19,652 bases of DNA from a virus (taxonomy: Duplodnaviria; Heunggongvirae; Uroviricota; Caudoviricetes). Below the pieces are notes generated by a model. It saw nothing but the letters and a program-made list of their open reading frames with translations, had not been told where the DNA came from and made no database searches. Below, one piece after another: positions 7,558 through 17,885 of this stretch (the stretch's first letter is position 1; each line of letters starts with the position of its first letter). The position numbers and the translations under genes were made by a program. The DNA is taken from the IMG/VR virus record IMGVR_UViG_3300027836_000006. The stretch is one strand, 5' to 3'.

Positions 7558-7616
7558 AGGATAGCAACAGCAAATTTAAAATTTCACTGTAAATGAAAAC
7601 AAAATGCTATCCTGTT
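7558..7616 (+). ncRNA. ACAGCAA-motif RNA 1 with Tyr(GUA) anticodon hairpin
   Basis: aggatagca/tgctatcct helix, acagcaa, tttca-ctGTAaa-tgaaa. Confidence 0.7.
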
Positions 7617-8205: not shown

Positions 8206-8294
8206 GGAAGGTTAACTGGACTGGGTCCAGCTCTGTCTTGAAAACAGAAGGTGTGCGTGAGCGCATAGAGTTCGATTCTACTATCCTTCCTCCA
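8206..8294 (+). tRNA. tRNA-Ser(UGA), divergent
   Basis: loop ctTGAaa, long variable arm, bulged T stem, U73. Confidence 0.78.
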
Positions 8295-8379: not shown

Positions 8380-8443
8380 AGGATGTTAACAGCAAATTTT
8401 ATACACTAGACTTTTAATCTAACCAGTAAAATACATCCTGTTT
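8380..8443 (+). ncRNA. ACAGCAA-motif RNA 2 with Lys(UUU) anticodon hairpin
   Basis: aggatgt/acatcct helix, acagcaa, taga-ctTTTaa-tcta. Confidence 0.7.
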
Positions 8444-8529: not shown

Positions 8530-8590
8530 AGGATACTAACAGCAAACTTAAAAAATTCAATTTGAACTTGAAAAGTAAATGTATCCTGTT
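8530..8590 (+). ncRNA. ACAGCAA-motif RNA 3 with Ser(UGA)-like anticodon hairpin
   Basis: aggatac/gtatcct helix, acagcaa, ttcaa-ttTGAac-ttgaa. Confidence 0.68.
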
Positions 8591-8976: not shown

Positions 8977-9103
8977 TATGCTAACACACTTTCAATCTGA
9001 ATTGACAGATACAAACAACCAAGGGGAGCCACTGGGTTCATTCCAGTTTCATCCTGAATTGACAGGAACAAGGTTGTAAGGGGAGCCGAGTGTGTTAACA
9101 TAT
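8976..9103 (+). ncRNA. structured RNA candidate with internal tandem duplication
   Basis: closing helix taacacact/agtgtgtta; two ctg-aattga-cag hairpins each followed by aaggggagcc. Confidence 0.55.
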
Positions 9104-9179
9104 GGTAACGTAGCATAGTGGCTAATGCACCACCTTCATACGGTGTTTATCGTCGGTTCGAGTCCGACCGTTACTACCA
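9104..9179 (+). tRNA. tRNA-Met or Ile2 (CAU)
   Basis: loop ttCATac, CCA; elongator type. Confidence 0.85.
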
Positions 9180-9182
9180 AGT

Positions 9183-9399
9183 TTTGTAAGTGTCAGCAAG
9201 AGAATGTCACGCTATAAAGGTTTCTTCGAAGGACTGATATAGTAGAAGGTTAATGGGTTCAACTCCCACCCGCGGGGAACTGCGGAGGTCTGTAACGGAG
9301 ACTATACTGGACTAGTATTCCAAGTGACGTACCGAGTCCCGTCCGGACTAGTTAATTCGGGTGAATGGTTGCTATAACGATGGAGCAACTACTTACAAA
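9183..9399 (+). ncRNA. long variant CAGCAA-motif RNA 4
   Basis: tttgtaagt/acttacaaa helix followed by gtCAGCAA; internal hairpins. Confidence 0.45.
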
Positions 9400-9463
9400 T
9401 TCAACAGACCCCCGCTTTGTCAGGTTGTGCGGTGAACAACTTGACACTTTATTAAATAAAGAT

Positions 9464-9704
9464 GTTAGTAAAAGGTTTAAGGTGTAATAGTGTTTCGAAA
9501 GAGCTTTGCGAATGTCGGAAGCATTCAATAAGAGAAGTTATAGACTTCAACACTCGCTGACGGATAGAGTAAGGTATTGTTTTCAGCATTGACCTTACAG
9601 TCAGCAATGCATTCCATGTTGGGCGAGACTAAGAGAGCAGATCTGAAAAATCTGGGTCGCCAGTGCTAACGCTAAAACCAAAACTCTGCGAATCTTTTAC
9701 TAAC
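9464..9704 (+). ncRNA. orphan ~240-nt structured RNA candidate
   Basis: 11-bp closing helix gttagtaaaag/cttttactaac between tRNAs; no long ORF. Confidence 0.45.
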
Positions 9705-9713
9705 TTCTTTTAT

Positions 9714-9787
9714 GCGGGTATGATGTAATGGTAACCTGAAACCTTGCCAAGGTTTATTCGCGAGTTCGATTCTCGCTACCCGCTCCA
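9714..9787 (+). tRNA. tRNA-Gly(GCC)
   Basis: loop ttGCCaa, UCCA. Confidence 0.9.
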
Positions 9788-9839
9788 AATTATGGCTCCT
9801 AAACTTGTTCGCATAGCGTCCTCTAGGAGTTTTCTTTTT

Positions 9840-9968
9840 AGGATACTAACAGCAAATTAAAATTCGCCTTCTAAGCGAGTGGTCGTTGGTTCGAGTCCAA
9901 CATTTGATCAAGCCTAAAAAGCAGTCAAATTAGCTCAGTTGGTAGAGCACTTTAAAATGTATCCTGTT
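9840..9968 (+). ncRNA. ACAGCAA-motif RNA 5 containing a circularly permuted tRNA-Arg(UCU)
   Basis: order: anticodon arm, V, T arm, acceptor 3', linker, acceptor 5', D arm, inside aggatac/gtatcct helix. Confidence 0.8.
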
Positions 9969-9976
9969 TTTTCTGT

Positions 9977-10050
9977 TCCCGGATTGTGTAATGGTAGCAC
10001 AACAGACTTTGACTCTGTTAGCCTAGGTTCGATCCCTAGTCCGGGTGCCA
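9977..10050 (+). tRNA. tRNA-Gln(UUG)
   Basis: loop ctTTGac, GCCA. Confidence 0.9.
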
Positions 10051-10055
10051 AATAT

Positions 10056-10130
10056 ATCGCTATAGTATAATGGATAATACACTACGCTACGAACGTGGGA
10101 ATAGAGGTTCGATTCCTTTTGGCGGTACCA
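10056..10130 (+). tRNA. tRNA-Arg(ACG)
   Basis: loop ctACGaa, CCA. Confidence 0.88.
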
Positions 10131-10136
10131 ATCTAT

Positions 10137-10212
10137 GGTGTCTTTAGTGTAGTGGCCTGCACCCTGCTCTGTGAAAGCGGTAGTACCGGATCGATACCGG
10201 TAAGGCACCCCA
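10137..10212 (+). tRNA. tRNA-His(GUG)
   Basis: G-1/C73, loop ctGTGaa, CCA. Confidence 0.88.
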
Positions 10213-10218
10213 AACAAT

Positions 10219-10295
10219 GCCCCTCTGGCGCAATTGGTAGACGCGGCTCTCTCAAAAGGAGTGTGTTCCCCGTTCGAGTCGGGGGAGGGGCACCA
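10219..10295 (+). tRNA. tRNA-Leu(CAA) with short variable loop
   Basis: Leu-type D arm, loop ctCAAaa, 5-nt variable region, ACCA. Confidence 0.8.
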
Positions 10296-10454
10296 AGTTT
10301 CGAAGATAGACGATAGTGTTGAGTCCCTTGTATGCTAGTGCCCTATTCTTGAGCATGACACACCAGTAGCTGTACAAGGTAGTTTAAACTCTGCTATTCG
10401 AGACAATCCAGCGAGTCCTTGAGAAAGATAGTTGGGCGCTTTGAAAACCTATTT

Positions 10455-10528
10455 GCTCTTATAGTTAAATGGCAGAACACCTCTTTGGTATGGAGGCAAT
10501 GAAAGTTCGATTCTTTCTAAGAGCACCA
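10455..10528 (+). tRNA. tRNA-Thr(GGU)
   Basis: loop ttGGTat, CCA. Confidence 0.82.
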
Positions 10529-10535
10529 GTTATAT

Positions 10536-10610
10536 CTGGCTATCGTATAATGGATAATACATAGAGCTTCTACCTCTAGAATGTGGGTTCGATTCCTGCT
10601 AGCCGGACCA
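10536..10610 (+). tRNA. tRNA-Arg(UCU)
   Basis: loop ctTCTac, CCA. Confidence 0.88.
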
Positions 10611-10723
10611 TATTAGAGCATCGAGTGAGACGGCATTGGTGTGCTGAAACTTCGTATAGATATGCCTAGGCGTCACATGTCTGAAGTATCTCTTTACTGG
10701 TTCGAATCCAGTATGCTCTAATA
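10611..10723 (+). ncRNA. tRNA-like RNA (acceptor + T arm, non-cloverleaf core)
   Basis: 11-bp terminal helix and actgg-ttcgaat-ccagt T arm. Confidence 0.5.
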
Positions 10724-10730
10724 TGGTTTT

Positions 10731-10805
10731 CGGGCTTTGGTGAAATGGATATCATTTCGGTCTTCGAAACCGACGGTGTAGGTTCGATTCCTACAAGCCC
10801 GGCCA
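10731..10805 (+). tRNA. tRNA-Arg(UCG)
   Basis: loop ctTCGaa, GCCA. Confidence 0.88.
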
Positions 10806-10834
10806 AAGTATTTCAAAAATAGTTCATAAAAGCG

Positions 10835-10863
10835 TTGACAGATTGCGCTAGATGTTATATAAT
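10835..10863 (+). promoter_or_regulatory. consensus sigma70 promoter inside the tRNA array
   Basis: TTGACA-N17-TATAAT. Confidence 0.85.
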
Positions 10864-10917
10864 AGTCACATACTAAGCAATTAGTAAAAACGCTCTTTAA
10901 AAATTTAATGTGACAAT

Positions 10918-10992
10918 GACGCCATCGTCTATCGGTTAGGACACTAGGTTTTCATCCTGGCAAGCGGGGTTCGATTCCCCGTGGCGTCTCCA
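10918..10992 (+). tRNA. tRNA-Glu(UUC)
   Basis: loop ttTTCat, CCA. Confidence 0.9.
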
Positions 10993-11132
10993 TTGTTAAG
11001 TACTATAAGGTATCGTGTAGGGACGCTTACACTATCCGGGTCAAAGCTGCCGGCGACTGATCCTGACATAACTGCATCGGCATTGAGTATGTTTAGCGAC
11101 TATCTCAGAATTTGCAAATAGTACTTAACAAT
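10992..11132 (+). ncRNA. orphan stem-closed RNA candidate
   Basis: perfect 15-bp helix attgttaagtactat/atagtacttaacaat. Confidence 0.45.
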
Positions 11133-11142
11133 GGAAAATTAT

Positions 11143-11226
11143 GCGCAAGTGGTGGAATGGTATACACGGTGGTCTTAGAAGCCACTGCCGAAAGGATTGA
11201 GAGTTCGAGTCTCTCCTTGCGCACCA
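11143..11226 (+). tRNA. tRNA-Leu(UAG)
   Basis: loop ctTAGaa, variable arm, CCA. Confidence 0.92.
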
Positions 11227-11231
11227 AACAT

Positions 11232-11316
11232 GGAGTAGAAGCATCAATGGTGATGCAGTGGACTGTAAATCCGCCGCCTTCGGGCACGCCTGGTTCGATC
11301 CCAGGATACTCCACCA
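11232..11316 (+). tRNA. tRNA-Tyr(GUA)
   Basis: loop ctGTAaa, variable arm, CCA. Confidence 0.92.
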
Positions 11317-11398
11317 AATCAAAGTAGGGAAATCTTCCTAAGTACACGGAAGTACTAAGTGTTAGAGATAATGAAAATTATCCCCCTGCGCCAAATTA

Positions 11399-11488
11399 GG
11401 AAATGTGACAGAGTCCGGTTTATTGTAGCAGTCTTGAAAACTGCCGTGTCGAAAGGCACCGTGAGTTCGAATCTCACCGTTTCCGCCA
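11399..11488 (+). tRNA. tRNA-Ser(UGA)
   Basis: loop ctTGAaa, variable arm, GCCA. Confidence 0.92.
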
Positions 11489-11493
11489 AGTTT

Positions 11494-11612
11494 GCTTGCT
11501 AAAGTTTAACTACACTGACAACCGATAAGAAGCGTATAAGTCGACCCGTACGTGAAAGGCTCAGGAAGATAAGGAGTTAGACAGTTCCGTTCGAATCGGA
11601 TAGCGAGCACCA
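11494..11612 (+). ncRNA. tRNA-like RNA with CCA end and no cloverleaf core
   Basis: 8-bp acceptor gcttgcta/tagcgagc, tccg-ttcgaat-cgga T arm, ACCA. Confidence 0.6.
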
Positions 11613-11617
11613 TAGTT

Positions 11618-11692
11618 GGTCTCATAGTATATCGGTTAGTATAATGGCCTGTCACGCCGTAGGGACGAGTTCGATTCTCGTTGAGACCGCCA
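11618..11692 (+). tRNA. tRNA-Asp(GUC)
   Basis: loop ctGTCac, GCCA. Confidence 0.92.
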
Positions 11693-11698
11693 AATAAT

Positions 11699-11772
11699 GT
11701 ATCTCTAATGTAATGGCAGCATGACAGTCTCCAAAACTGTTCGTCGGGGTTCGAGTCCCTGGAGGTACGCCA
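11699..11772 (+). tRNA. tRNA-Trp(CCA)
   Basis: loop ctCCAaa, GCCA. Confidence 0.9.
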
Positions 11773-11786
11773 GTTAAATATAAGTG

Positions 11787-11815
11787 TTGACAGTAGTTAA
11801 CACAGAAAGTATAAT
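11787..11815 (+). promoter_or_regulatory. consensus sigma70 promoter
   Basis: TTGACA-N17-TATAAT. Confidence 0.85.
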
Positions 11816-11820
11816 AGACA

Positions 11821-12048
11821 ATGTATAAAATAATAGGTAAAGAAGAAACTTTCAAAACACTCACACTCGGTGAAGCAATGAATGTTGCTAAGATGATGAA
11901 CGAATTTGTAAGAATTGTTGGAACAGATTTTGAAGTAGTAGGACGATTTGGAGTTGACTCTGTGGTAGATGGTAAGTGCCCAGATGGTGTTACTTATGAT
12001 TGGAACAAAGCAAGCCGCATCGGCAGAGTAAAGAAAGAAAGAGTTTAA
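11821..12048 (+). CDS. hypothetical protein (probably leaderless)
   Basis: ATG 5 nt after the -10 box; 75 aa. Confidence 0.65.
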   Translation: MYKIIGKEETFKTLTLGEAMNVAKMMNEFVRIVGTDFEVVGRFGVDSVVDGKCPDGVTYDWNKASRIGRVKKERV

Positions 12049-14057: not shown

Positions 14058-14149
14058 GCCAGCGAGACTGGGTAGTCAGAGAGGTTTTATAAACCTTTTA
14101 GCGCCAGATTAGCGTTCTTGATAGGGTTCGAATCCCTACGCTGGTACCA
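14058..14149 (+). tRNA. atypical long-variable-arm tRNA with UAU anticodon
   Basis: gccagcg/cgctggt, tiny D arm, loop ttTATaa, variable stem, canonical T arm, ACCA. Confidence 0.65.
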
Positions 14150-15857: not shown

Positions 15858-15911
15858 AGGATACTAACAGCAACTTTTAACTTTTATGGTAAAAAGAAAA
15901 TGTATCCTGTT
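15858..15911 (+). ncRNA. ACAGCAA-motif RNA 7 (short; possible Thr GGU hairpin)
   Basis: aggatac/gtatcct helix, acagcaa, tttt-atGGTaa-aaag. Confidence 0.65.
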
Positions 15912-15990: not shown

Positions 15991-16159
15991 AGGATCGGTA
16001 CAGCAACATTCATATTACTATGAATCGTTAGACACTGTGGTAGTAACTGGAGCAGAGTGCTTAAAAACACCGAGCGTTGAAGGGTGCTATTGAAACAAGA
16101 CTAACAAGCTCAGAGTGATGGCCTGAGTAAAATAAAAGCAGTCAACAACGATCCTGTTT
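15991..16159 (+). ncRNA. ACAGCAA-motif RNA 8 (long)
   Basis: aggatcg/cgatcct helix, acagcaa, tgttt tail. Confidence 0.65.
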
Positions 16160-16165
16160 AGTCAT

Positions 16166-16397
16166 AGGATGACTACAGCAACCTAAAATACTAACGTAAC
16201 TGCTATCGAAGGTGACCGTAGGGTACAGTAGAAATACTGTTCTAGCAATAGACGCTCAAGGGATAGATAGACTGGCAAAGCACCAGATATGATTTACATA
16301 CAGAAAAACATGTAATAGGCAACATGAATGTTGCTAGGGTCTGGGTGCTATAATTGGCCAGACCAGAAAATAAACAAATTGGCACACTCATCCTGTT
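16166..16397 (+). ncRNA. ACAGCAA-motif RNA 9 (long)
   Basis: aggatga/tcatcct helix, acagcaa, tgtt tail. Confidence 0.65.
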
Positions 16398-16405
16398 AAA
16401 GTTTT

Positions 16406-16462
16406 AGAATGTTAACAGCAACTTTTAAATTTCAAGCATATCGAAAATAAAATACATTCTGT
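16406..16462 (+). ncRNA. ACAGCAA-motif RNA 10 (short), abutting the TROVE-like RBS
   Basis: agaatgt/acattct helix, acagcaa, tttc...gaaa inner hairpin. Confidence 0.65.
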
Positions 16463-16475
16463 AAAGGTAATTAAA

Positions 16476-17885
16476 ATGAACGCATTTGTAAACGCAGTAG
16501 CAAACCAAGAAGCCCGTACCGAAAACGGTATGAAGGCACGTAAGTCAACAGCCAAGGCTACAGTTGACTTGTTTTACAAGATTGGCGCAAGCCGTGGCAA
16601 GGACATCACTCGTGATTTCACCGCGGCATACGTTGAAAACTCTGATGTAGCACTACGCATCGCACAATGGGCACGTGATGTCCGCGGTGGTGCTGGTGAA
16701 CGTCAGTTGTTCCGCGATATTCTAGTACATCTAGAAAAGCGTGACCCAGACGCCGCTTTGGCTCTTCTAAAGAAGATTCCAGAAGTTGGTCGTTGGGATG
16801 ACATCTTTGTCTTCACCAACCCAGACCTGAAGTCAGCCGCTTATACCATGTTGGGCGATGCCCTTCGTGCTAAGAACGGTTTGGCTGCAAAGTGGACTCC
16901 TCGTAAGGGTAAGATTGCGGCTGAAGTACGAGCATTCTTCGGAATGTCTCCAAAGCAGTACCGCAAGTCATTGGTAACAATGACAACCGTTGTTGAAACC
17001 CAAATGTGTGCAGGAGATTGGGATAACATCAACTTCAGTCACGTACCTTCTGTTGCTTCACGCAACTACAAGAAGGCATTCAACCGTCACACACCTGCGT
17101 TTGCAGAGTATGTGGCCAAGTTGGTAAGTGGTGATAAGACTGTTAAGGTTAACGCCAGCGCAATCTTCCCGCATGACGTGCTGAAGGGCATTGCTCACAG
17201 CTACACCAAGCTGGACAAGACAGAAACTGACCATGTGATCGCACAATGGGACGCTCTGCCAAACTACGTAGGTGACGCAAGTATCCTACCTCTAGTTGAC
17301 GTGTCTGGTTCGATGACTACATCTGTTGGTGGTAACACCGCAGTGCGTTGTTTGGATGTGGCAGTTTCACTGGGCTTGTACCTTGCGGACAAGAACAAGG
17401 GTGCGTTCAAGGACACATTCTTGACTTTCTCAAGCAAGCCAGAACTTGTTACCCTAAAGGGTAACATTGTTCAAAAGGTGGAACAAATGAGCAAGAGCAA
17501 CTGGGAAATGAGCACTAACCTACATGCCGCTATGGACAAGATCCTAAGCGTTGCGGTTAAGGGTTCAGTACCAGCTAGCGACATGCCAGCCATGTTGCTA
17601 ATCTTGTCAGACATGCAGTTCGACCAATGCGCTCGTTACGACGATAGCGCAATGGAAATGATTGAACGTAAGTTCGAAGCCGCAGGCTACAGCATGCCAC
17701 AAATTGTTTTCTGGAACCTAAACAGTTCAGATAACGTGCCTGTTAAGGCAGACAAGAGTGGTGCCGCATTGGTAAGTGGATTCAGTCCATCAATCATGAC
17801 TAGCTTGCTAGCCGCTGATTTGGATCAATTCACTCCAGAAGGCATCATGCTTAAGACAGTAATGAGTGATCGTTACGCTCTGTAA
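16476..17885 (+). CDS. TROVE/Ro60-like (DUF2828-type) protein with C-terminal vWA domain
   Basis: RDVRGGAGERQLFR, GRWDD, AAKWTPRK helical region; vWA MIDAS DVSGSM, ILSDMQFD, IVFWNL. Confidence 0.8.
   Translation: MNAFVNAVANQEARTENGMKARKSTAKATVDLFYKIGASRGKDITRDFTAAYVENSDVALRIAQWARDVRGGAGERQLFRDILVHLEKRDPDAALALLKKIPEVGRWDDIFVFTNPDLKSAAYTMLGDALRAKNGLAAKWTPRKGKIAAEVRAFFGMSPKQYRKSLVTMTTVVETQMCAGDWDNINFSHVPSVASRNYKKAFNRHTPAFAEYVAKLVSGDKTVKVNASAIFPHDVLKGIAHSYTKLDKTETDHVIAQWDALPNYVGDASILPLVDVSGSMTTSVGGNTAVRCLDVAVSLGLYLADKNKGAFKDTFLTFSSKPELVTLKGNIVQKVEQMSKSNWEMSTNLHAAMDKILSVAVKGSVPASDMPAMLLILSDMQFDQCARYDDSAMEMIERKFEAAGYSMPQIVFWNLNSSDNVPVKADKSGAALVSGFSPSIMTSLLAADLDQFTPEGIMLKTVMSDRYAL

Follow-up and report, generated by a model that had tools for sequence, protein, structure and literature searches.

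Here we report that positions 9840–9969 on the plus strand of a 19,652-nt stretch of phage DNA (IMG/VR record IMGVR_UViG_3300027836_000006, Caudoviricetes; from here: the window) are a small-RNA gene of a phage RNA family defined by a "stem + ACAGCAA" handle. The cargo enclosed by this handle is a complete cloverleaf derived from a tRNA-Arg(UCU), which is encoded in rotated order, opened between tRNA positions 26 and 27 and sealed by a loop at its acceptor end. Our preferred reading, to which we assign a probability of roughly 0.7, is that the element specifies a Y-RNA-like, non-decoding tRNA mimic in the style of YrlA, which retains an anticodon arm and is carried on a handle docked to a Ro60-like protein.

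The handle helix pairs AGGATAC (9840–9846), which is invariant in the six distinct sequences of this type described below, with GTATCCT (9959–9965), behind which GTTT completes the element (9959–9969). The 5′ joiner (9847–9862) begins with TAACAGCAA; it consists of the box UAACAGCAA (9847–9855), which every handle RNA in the window and in 80 related loci carries, and an A/U-rich spacer that differs among orthologues. The anticodon arm (9863–9879, tRNA positions 27–43) has a 5-bp stem, ttcgc/gcgag, and the loop CUUCUAA with the anticodon UCU. It is followed by the variable loop TGGTC (9880–9884, positions 44–48 with G45, G46 and C48), which by direct reading has the class-I tRNA tertiary pattern, by the T arm GTTGG/TTCGAGT/CCAAC (9885–9901) and by the acceptor 3′ strand ATTTGAT (9902–9908). 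A 15-nt linker without CCA (9909–9923) closes the acceptor end and leads into the segment 9924–9932, composed of the acceptor 5′ strand GTCAAAT (9924–9930), which pairs with 9902–9908, and of U8 and A9 (9931–9932). The D arm GCTC/AGTTGGTA/GAGC (9933–9948), with U20 and not A20 in its loop, and A26 (9949) complete the tRNA moiety, and the 3′ joiner CTTTAAAAT (ctttaaaat, 9950–9958) contains the A-rich run ahead of the 3′ helix strand that is a feature of the family. The unconstrained minimum free energy (MFE) fold returned exactly these five helices, i.e. the 7-bp handle, the anticodon stem, the T stem, the 7-bp acceptor and the D stem, at −31 kcal/mol (z = −2.3).

When 9924–9949 was moved ahead of 9863–9909, ARAGORN recognized the resulting sequence as a 73-nt tRNA-Arg(tct), and it likewise found a tRNA in each of five reordered orthologues, including a tRNA-Cys(gca). 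Direct reading finds every base needed for the classical tertiary contacts: U8, A14, G15–C48, G18, G19 and A9–A23–U12, and in addition G45–G10–C25, G46–G22–C13, T54, T55, C56 and A58. An alignment of the reordered element to the Synechococcus phage S-CAM4 tRNA-Arg(TCT) runs end to end with 62 of 77 columns identical, rising to 54 of 60 over positions 8–65. Its anticodon loop and T arm equal those of the S-CAM4 tRNA-Arg, and the D arm is the same save for the missing A20. Both halves therefore derive from one tRNA of the Arg(UCU) type. A preliminary description, made from the letters alone, had claimed a complete tRNA-Arg(UCU) opened at 26/27 with a loop-sealed acceptor, and had proposed reordering as a check. 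The coordinates and sequences which it gave for all parts between 9863 and 9949 are exact to the base, and the MFE fold, ARAGORN on the reordered sequence and the covariation described next bear out the structure.

Relatives of the window were collected as 80 IMG/VR loci through a search with the neighbouring DUF2828 protein, plus four through a DNA pattern scan. Megablast of window positions 9000–12000 against 50,697 phage records gave 0 matches; a close relative is absent among these deposited phage genomes. Copies of the permuted element (class A) were then collected by BLAST and with a covariance model built here (R1), and were found only in the window and in loci L004/5/84/85, L009, L018, L054 and L029, with scores of 126–142 bits. 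The six distinct class-A sequences were combined in alignment A1. All 28 of the 28 proposed pairs are standard in 100% of the cells, and nine pairs have changes on both sides: four in the acceptor, three of the five in the T stem, one in the anticodon stem (31–39, C–G to A–U) and one in the D stem (12–23). The remaining three acceptor pairs change on one side among orthologues. This level of pairing and covariation was matched by none of the column shuffles (0/500), and slid partners were 25–44% paired. The pairing together with the compensatory changes therefore rules out chance and a decaying pseudogene; all five helices are under selection. The tRNA format of the anticodon loop (Y32, U33, R37) is kept in all six class-A sequences. 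In L029, the scaffold is kept with the anticodon loop CTGCAAA, and it is this copy that ARAGORN reads as tRNA-Cys(gca) after reordering; the search for permuted copies with other anticodons, which had also been proposed, has thus returned one with GCA.

The acceptor linker is 15 nt long in the window versus 5 nt, T(C/T)CAT, in L009, L054, L018 and L029. The long form, (T)CAAGCCTAAA(A/C)AGCA(G) at window positions 9909–9923, is nearly invariant when compared with class-B paralogues in L015/L016, L028, L073 and L012, despite the fact that the flanking acceptor and T stems differ between these and the window element. A related string, AAAAGCAGTCAAC, terminates the handle RNA at 15991–16155. These observations suggest a separate role for the linker itself, or recombination among paralogues.

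The same order of parts could be left by tandem tRNA genes in decay, the first lacking its D arm and the second truncated behind position 26, which is a known source of false positives of the YrlA model. Dimeric tRNAs were warned of in this respect (Chen et al. 2014, PMC4201824), and the Rfam tRNA model matches 9851–9909 at 33.2 bits by treating AGCAAAT as an acceptor 5′ strand and deleting the D arm. We rejected this match because the AGCAAAT string belongs to the ACAGCAA box found in all handle RNAs, and the orthologues do not preserve its complementarity with the acceptor 3′ strand. The acceptor strands pair in cis and covary, all helices are selected, and the linker is just 5 nt long in most orthologues, all of which makes a present-day remnant extremely improbable. 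As history, and not as present state, a tandem-tRNA origin is plausible. A dimeric-tRNA origin has been proposed for YrlA, and in the form in which Wang et al. 2018 (bioRxiv 10.1101/312249) relay that model, its intermediate matches the layout found here: the anticodon arm, variable loop, T arm and acceptor 3′ strand of a first tRNA, then a spacer, then the acceptor 5′ strand and D arm of a second.

For its function, the preliminary description had left two options, a non-chargeable full tRNA mimic or maturation into a tRNA by ligation and cleavage of the acceptor loop. The lack of a CCA end, the U at position 20 and redundancy speak for the first. C-AAG stands behind the acceptor strand of the element and no CCA is encoded, versus an encoded CCA end on all tRNAs found by ARAGORN in the window (37/37). 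At position 20, all six class-A sequences have U, and the three true tRNA-Arg genes of the window (GGATA) and the S-CAM4 tRNA-Arg have A. In E. coli, the identity set of arginyl-tRNA synthetase comprises A20 as a major element, C35, and U or G at position 36; C35 and U36 are present in the element and A20 is absent. An ordinary tRNA-Arg(tct) occurs in every phage carrying the element, and L029 has an ordinary tRNA-Cys as well, hence the permuted copy is redundant for decoding. In the window, the ordinary tRNA-Arg(UCU) is encoded in the same array at 10536–10610 on the plus strand, with A20 and an encoded CCA; its anticodon loop reads CUUCUAC (C38), while that of the permuted mimic is the common bacterial CUUCUAA. 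Moreover, the same handle encloses cargos that are incapable of becoming tRNAs. We therefore favour a non-chargeable tRNA mimic over a decoding tRNA.

The opposite case would be a true permuted tRNA gene, in which the handle is removed, positions 26 and 27 are ligated via a circular intermediate, the acceptor loop is opened by RNase P with a 3′ nuclease, and CCA addition follows; in a variant, RNase P and CCA addition alone would yield a two-piece tRNA clamped by the handle. The complete cloverleaf with its canonical anticodon loop and all tertiary bases is what such a gene would need, and L029 combines U73 with the GCA anticodon. A 7-bp acceptor makes the M. smegmatis YrlA a substrate of RNase P and of CCA addition in vivo (PMC4201824), and the same possibility of tRNA formation has been raised for YrlA (Wang et al. 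2018, bioRxiv 10.1101/312249). By analogy, RNase P might open the 7-bp acceptor in the long-linker copy of the window, a step not needed by a mimic, and opening appears dispensable, given the 5-nt acceptor loops in most orthologues. Against a permuted gene stand the absence of A20 and of an encoded CCA, the redundancy in every carrier, the non-tRNA cargos of the handle and the 5-nt hairpin loop that replaces the anticodon loop in orthologues in the same slot. Searches for RtcB and Rnl2-type ligases in related phage records, including two that are 94–96% complete, found none; both of these lack a class-A element in the fetched loci, so that the negative is weak evidence. A search for the T4 Rnl1 family gave no match, with the controls likewise unmatched. 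We consider a permuted tRNA gene very unlikely and maturation by ligation disfavoured.

The comparison with the permuted tRNA genes of Cyanidioschyzon merolae and of some archaea (Soma et al. 2007; review PMC3978253) leads in the same direction. As in those genes, the 3′ half is found upstream of the 5′ half, the acceptor at first forms a closed loop and all tRNA parts are recoverable. However, their transcripts have a bulge-helix-bulge and are converted by splicing endonuclease and ligase into essential decoding tRNAs (PMC3978253), whereas the element belongs to a bacterial/phage setting, is redundant with a normal tRNA, lacks A20 and CCA, and is flanked by a handle common to non-tRNA cargos. 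No bulge-helix-bulge was found at the element termini, where 16 unpaired nt lie between the 7-bp helix and position 27, and 9 unpaired nt between the helix and position 26; these joiners are poorly conserved among orthologues. The element is not a permuted tRNA gene of the C. merolae type. A related idea treats the handle as a maturation or assembly signal, such that the RNA, opened by RNase P and supplied with CCA, would become a chargeable tRNA, either in two pieces that the handle and the Ro60-like protein hold together or after religation at 26/27. Just as improbable in our view, it would mean that a bacterial virus expresses a permuted or split tRNA gene, the first such case, and would imply a cut-and-join tRNA pathway of a kind not known in bacteria.

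Data from freshwater RNA libraries were consulted as well. In runs X1 and X2, 96–98% of the sampled words were present and contigs spanned 9758–10050 at background depth. Such contigs cannot reveal RNA ends, strand, level or absence, and they neither support nor refute processing. A 26/27 back-joint (9949 to 9863) is not listed in these contigs, which cannot prove its absence. A few contig joints beginning near 9949/9950 connect to other tRNA-like sites, probably as graph links via the common D-arm sequence.

The handle follows a simple grammar: a terminal helix of 6–9 bp, (U)AACAGCAA beside its 5′ strand, an A-rich run before the 3′ strand, and then GU(UU). The element at 9840 fits it with AGGATAC and TAACAGCAA on one side and AAAAT and GTATCCT on the other. 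At least eight other handle RNAs reside in the tRNA array of the window (at 7558, 8380, 8530, 15858, 15991, 16166, 16406 and ~13167), together with a variant at ~9186, and the handle was found hundreds of times in the 80 related loci, with cargos from ~30 nt to more than 200 nt. The claim that the tRNA parts are embedded in a motif RNA hence finds its explanation: the element is one copy of a repeated RNA made of a helix and ACAGCAA. The family is absent from Rfam and without a name, and a literature search found no publication on it.

Among the short handle RNAs of the window, those at 7558–7613 and 8380–8439 display anticodon-format hairpins (CUGUAAA and CUUUUAA, respectively) and the one at 8530–8587 has the loop UUUGAAC, all three on the plus strand. 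Hairpins with a 7-nt loop of tRNA format (Y32, U33, R37) occur in 25 of 61 distinct short handle RNAs, compared with 1.7 ± 1.3 in composition-matched shuffles. The displayed triplets include UUU, UGA, UAU, GGU, GCA, GUA and UUC, and they are swapped among orthologues while the stems covary. Apart from the element at 9840, no handle RNA of the window has a T-acceptor-D module. According to Chen et al. 2014 (PMC4201824), every species possesses one or more Y RNAs with a tRNA-like domain, and following this pattern we read the element as the phage equivalent. In related phages, class-B paralogues with true YrlA topology occupy another slot, beside the DUF2828 gene.

The tRNA array ends at this gene (16476–17885, plus strand). 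It encodes a protein of 469 aa with the Pfam domains DUF2828 and DUF7788 and a Ro60-like predicted fold, consisting of a helical ring plus a domain of the von Willebrand factor A type. Four handle RNAs lie directly upstream of it on the plus strand (15858–15908, 15991–16155, 16166–16394 and 16406–16460). The protein belongs to PHROG 850, annotated as "RNA-binding protein", has no match to Pfam TROVE, and has homologues in 711 deposited phage genomes. An AlphaFold2 model based on 64 diverse homologues reached a pLDDT of 91 and a pTM of 0.90. With this model, the top 13 Foldseek matches in the PDB were all Ro60/TROVE structures over the full length (E 5e-8 to 4.5e-6, query TM-score 0.37–0.62), including Xenopus Ro60, human Ro60, D. 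radiodurans Rsr and the Ro60 of Thermus phage phiLo. Sequence-only searches of the PDB were insignificant, both with the single sequence and with a profile (E ~0.1), though the top profile matches were Ro60. According to its Pfam description, the DUF2828 family has eukaryotic members; a literature search for DUF2828 returned unrelated plant and tardigrade papers only. Handle and DUF2828/DUF7788 co-occur in the window and in the 80 IMG/VR relatives, usually in or beside the tRNA array. Handle RNAs are also located directly upstream of the DUF2828 gene in Vibrio phage vB_VpaP-MS02 and Synechococcus phage BUCT-ZZ01, both of them cultured and distant phages.

Among known RNAs, YrlA is the closest in design. 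Both YrlA and the element run from a T arm through a loop-closed acceptor to a D arm inside a terminal stem, with the tRNA tertiary bases; both are found among tRNA genes near a gene for a Ro60-shaped protein, in our case by predicted fold; and the 7-bp acceptor of the element also exists in the M. smegmatis YrlA. The literature likens YrlA to a circularly permuted tRNA (PMC4201824; bioRxiv 10.1101/312249) and reports its binding by bacterial and phage Ro60/Rsr (PMC4201824; bioRxiv 10.1101/312249; PMC12135203). There are clear differences, however. The Ro60-binding helix of YrlA contains GNCGAAN0-1G, whereas the element has a short helix plus ACAGCAA and no CGAA motif. YrlA is the partner of a Pfam TROVE Ro60, whereas the presumed partner of the element is the DUF2828/DUF7788 protein. 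In YrlA, the equivalent of the anticodon stem is built from the 5′ and 3′ strands and is continuous with the Ro-binding stem, whereas the element has a local 5-bp hairpin with a 7-nt loop. The Rfam YrlA model (RF02553, gathering score 69 bits) gave 35.1 bits (E 2e-6, local scan) on 9857–9975, a score to which the T arm, acceptor and D arm alone contribute; the element is not a member of Rfam YrlA. Published YrlA RNAs lack an anticodon loop (Wang et al. 2018, bioRxiv 10.1101/312249), and it had been correctly noted beforehand that the full anticodon arm sets this RNA apart from them. What is new relative to YrlA is hence a conserved Y-like RNA containing a whole tRNA including the anticodon arm, on a different handle, beside a protein that is Ro60-shaped by prediction and falls outside the TROVE family.

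A likeness of a different kind exists to the Class I RNAs of dictyostelids (RF01414; Kjellin et al. 2021, PMC7919456), which also have a short terminal stem, (CU)UACAGCAA beside the 5′ strand and a 3′ end ...CUGU; the RF01414 consensus consists of the stem plus CUUACAGCAA and ends in CUG. Some short handle RNAs matched this model below its gathering score of 41.5 bits, with 24.1 bits for window positions 8531–8588 and 28.1 bits in L001, which is the Vibrio phage named above; the L001 handle RNAs concerned are located at 2799–2857 and 3233–3287. On 9780–9985, which covers the element, RF01414 gave no match at E ≤ 10. Class I RNAs lack a tRNA-like cargo, whereas the element carries one, and they were reported to be unique to dictyostelids (PMC7919456). 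With transfer-messenger RNA and the tRNA-like structure of turnip yellow mosaic virus, the element shares the use of the tRNA L-shape by an RNA other than an ordinary tRNA. These have a free, chargeable CCA end and a role in translation or replication, whereas the acceptor of the element is sealed and it possesses a true anticodon arm.

In our preferred reading, the handle, comprising the 7-bp helix, the UAACAGCAA box, the A-rich 3′ joiner and the GUUU tail, would dock the RNA onto the Ro60-like ring in the way Y RNAs dock onto Ro60. The cargo would form a full tRNA L-shape with its elbow and a genuine anticodon loop and would not be chargeable as made. We infer that the RNA is a discrete transcript that is bound by the protein and acts as a decoy or tether, such that the mimic might bait, tether or titrate a factor that reads tRNA shape and anticodon. 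The swap from UCU to GCA in close relatives and the short paralogues with only an anticodon arm suggest that anticodon-specific recognition is part of the function. Among the possible roles we tentatively prefer that of a decoy for host anticodon-specific tRNA nucleases or modifying enzymes, alongside the paralogues made of an anticodon arm only. We favour a decoy because anticodons swap between close relatives, because many paralogues are anticodon arms only and because of the setting in a tRNA array. Phage tRNA arrays have been linked to the countering of tRNA-targeting defences. Bait for host tRNA-cleaving defence nucleases or for tRNA-modifying enzymes would be an example of such anticodon-specific recognition, for which the element offers a concrete test system. 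An alternative, by analogy to the Ro60-Yrl of Thermus phage phiLo, which tethers to the exoribonuclease polynucleotide phosphorylase (PMC12135203), would be a Y-RNA-style tether to an exoribonuclease.

Four observations weigh against this reading. The perfect anticodon loop, the full set of tertiary bases and the 7-bp acceptor exceed what a scaffold would apparently need. The same-slot orthologues in L044, L031 and L033, which lie behind tRNA-Gly(gcc), have a 5-nt hairpin loop, and anticodon display is therefore not universal. The Ro60-like gene is located 6.5 kb from the element, and the link between handle and protein is one of co-occurrence. Finally, the RNA-library contigs cover the element only at background depth, with ends that are not resolvable.

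The element could instead be a processing or stability module within the array transcript, acting as RNase P/RNase Z "punctuation" or as a nuclease-resistant cap, with an anticodon arm that has no role in trans. Its location would suit such a function, between tRNA-Gly and tRNA-Gln in a co-oriented array; a scan for promoters and terminators around it gave nothing telling and none adjacent. Handle RNAs abut tRNA 3′ ends, and a stable tRNA fold was proposed as a nuclease shield for Y RNAs (Chen et al. 2014, PMC4201824). Yet true tRNAs alongside already supply processing sites, Y32, U33 and R37 are kept in the six class-A sequences with the anticodon swapped and not degraded, and anticodon-format hairpins are strongly enriched in the paralogues. 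We consider this module unlikely. Whatever its role, the element shows that tRNA-gene finders miss complete tRNA sequences of one class within the tRNA arrays of phages.

Further arrangements of tRNA parts on the handle were observed in other phages. In L001, positions 2963–3205 contain a nested tRNA-like pair, the outer of which is a permuted T-acceptor-D RNA on the handle. The inner one, within the acceptor "loop" of the outer, has the normal order with the anticodon arm replaced by a hairpin-closed handle helix, ATAGCCT-GTAG-AGGTTAT plus TAACAGCAA, and scores 52 bits with the Rfam tRNA model as a tRNA with a 48-nt "intron". T-acceptor-D handle RNAs with a hairpin behind the D arm, and thus with the break at 43/44 and not at 26/27, are present in L015 (2335–2451) and L025 (3378–3495); the hairpin in L015 has a 5-bp stem and the loop TTTCAAG (anticodon-format UCA). 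Another permuted class, absent from the window, was found in L007 (1375–1486), L011 (258–369), L018 (159–271), L040 (317–427), L044 (4607–4721) and L015 (2543–2653). Its members combine a hairpin in anticodon format (CTTGAAA or CTGTAAA), whose stems covary, with a T arm, a 4-bp "acceptor" capped by a GNRA tetraloop and a D arm.

The variant handle RNA at 9186–9397 has the helix GTAAGT.../...ACTTAC, the box UCAGCAA and a structured cargo of ~200 nt with a T-arm-like hairpin. A Rfam scan of 9170–9715 returned no family even at E ≤ 5. The RNA-library depth at 9186–9397 reached ~70,000 in X3 and 38,800 in X5, and in X1 and X2 it was up to ~20-fold that of the flanks. The depth could reflect a stable phage RNA of very high abundance, or a piece shared with an abundant RNA of other organisms.

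The window is a fragment of an uncultured freshwater T4-like phage, with the rIIA gene at its 3′ end and 37 tRNA genes on the plus strand. Unusual tRNAs are encoded at 957–1030, 8206–8290 and 14058–14149. They include one with a CUA anticodon, which is of amber-suppressor type and labelled Pyl by ARAGORN, a tRNA-Sec-like match that is barely at the threshold (47.6 versus 47 bits), and a tRNA with a UAU anticodon that has a long variable arm.

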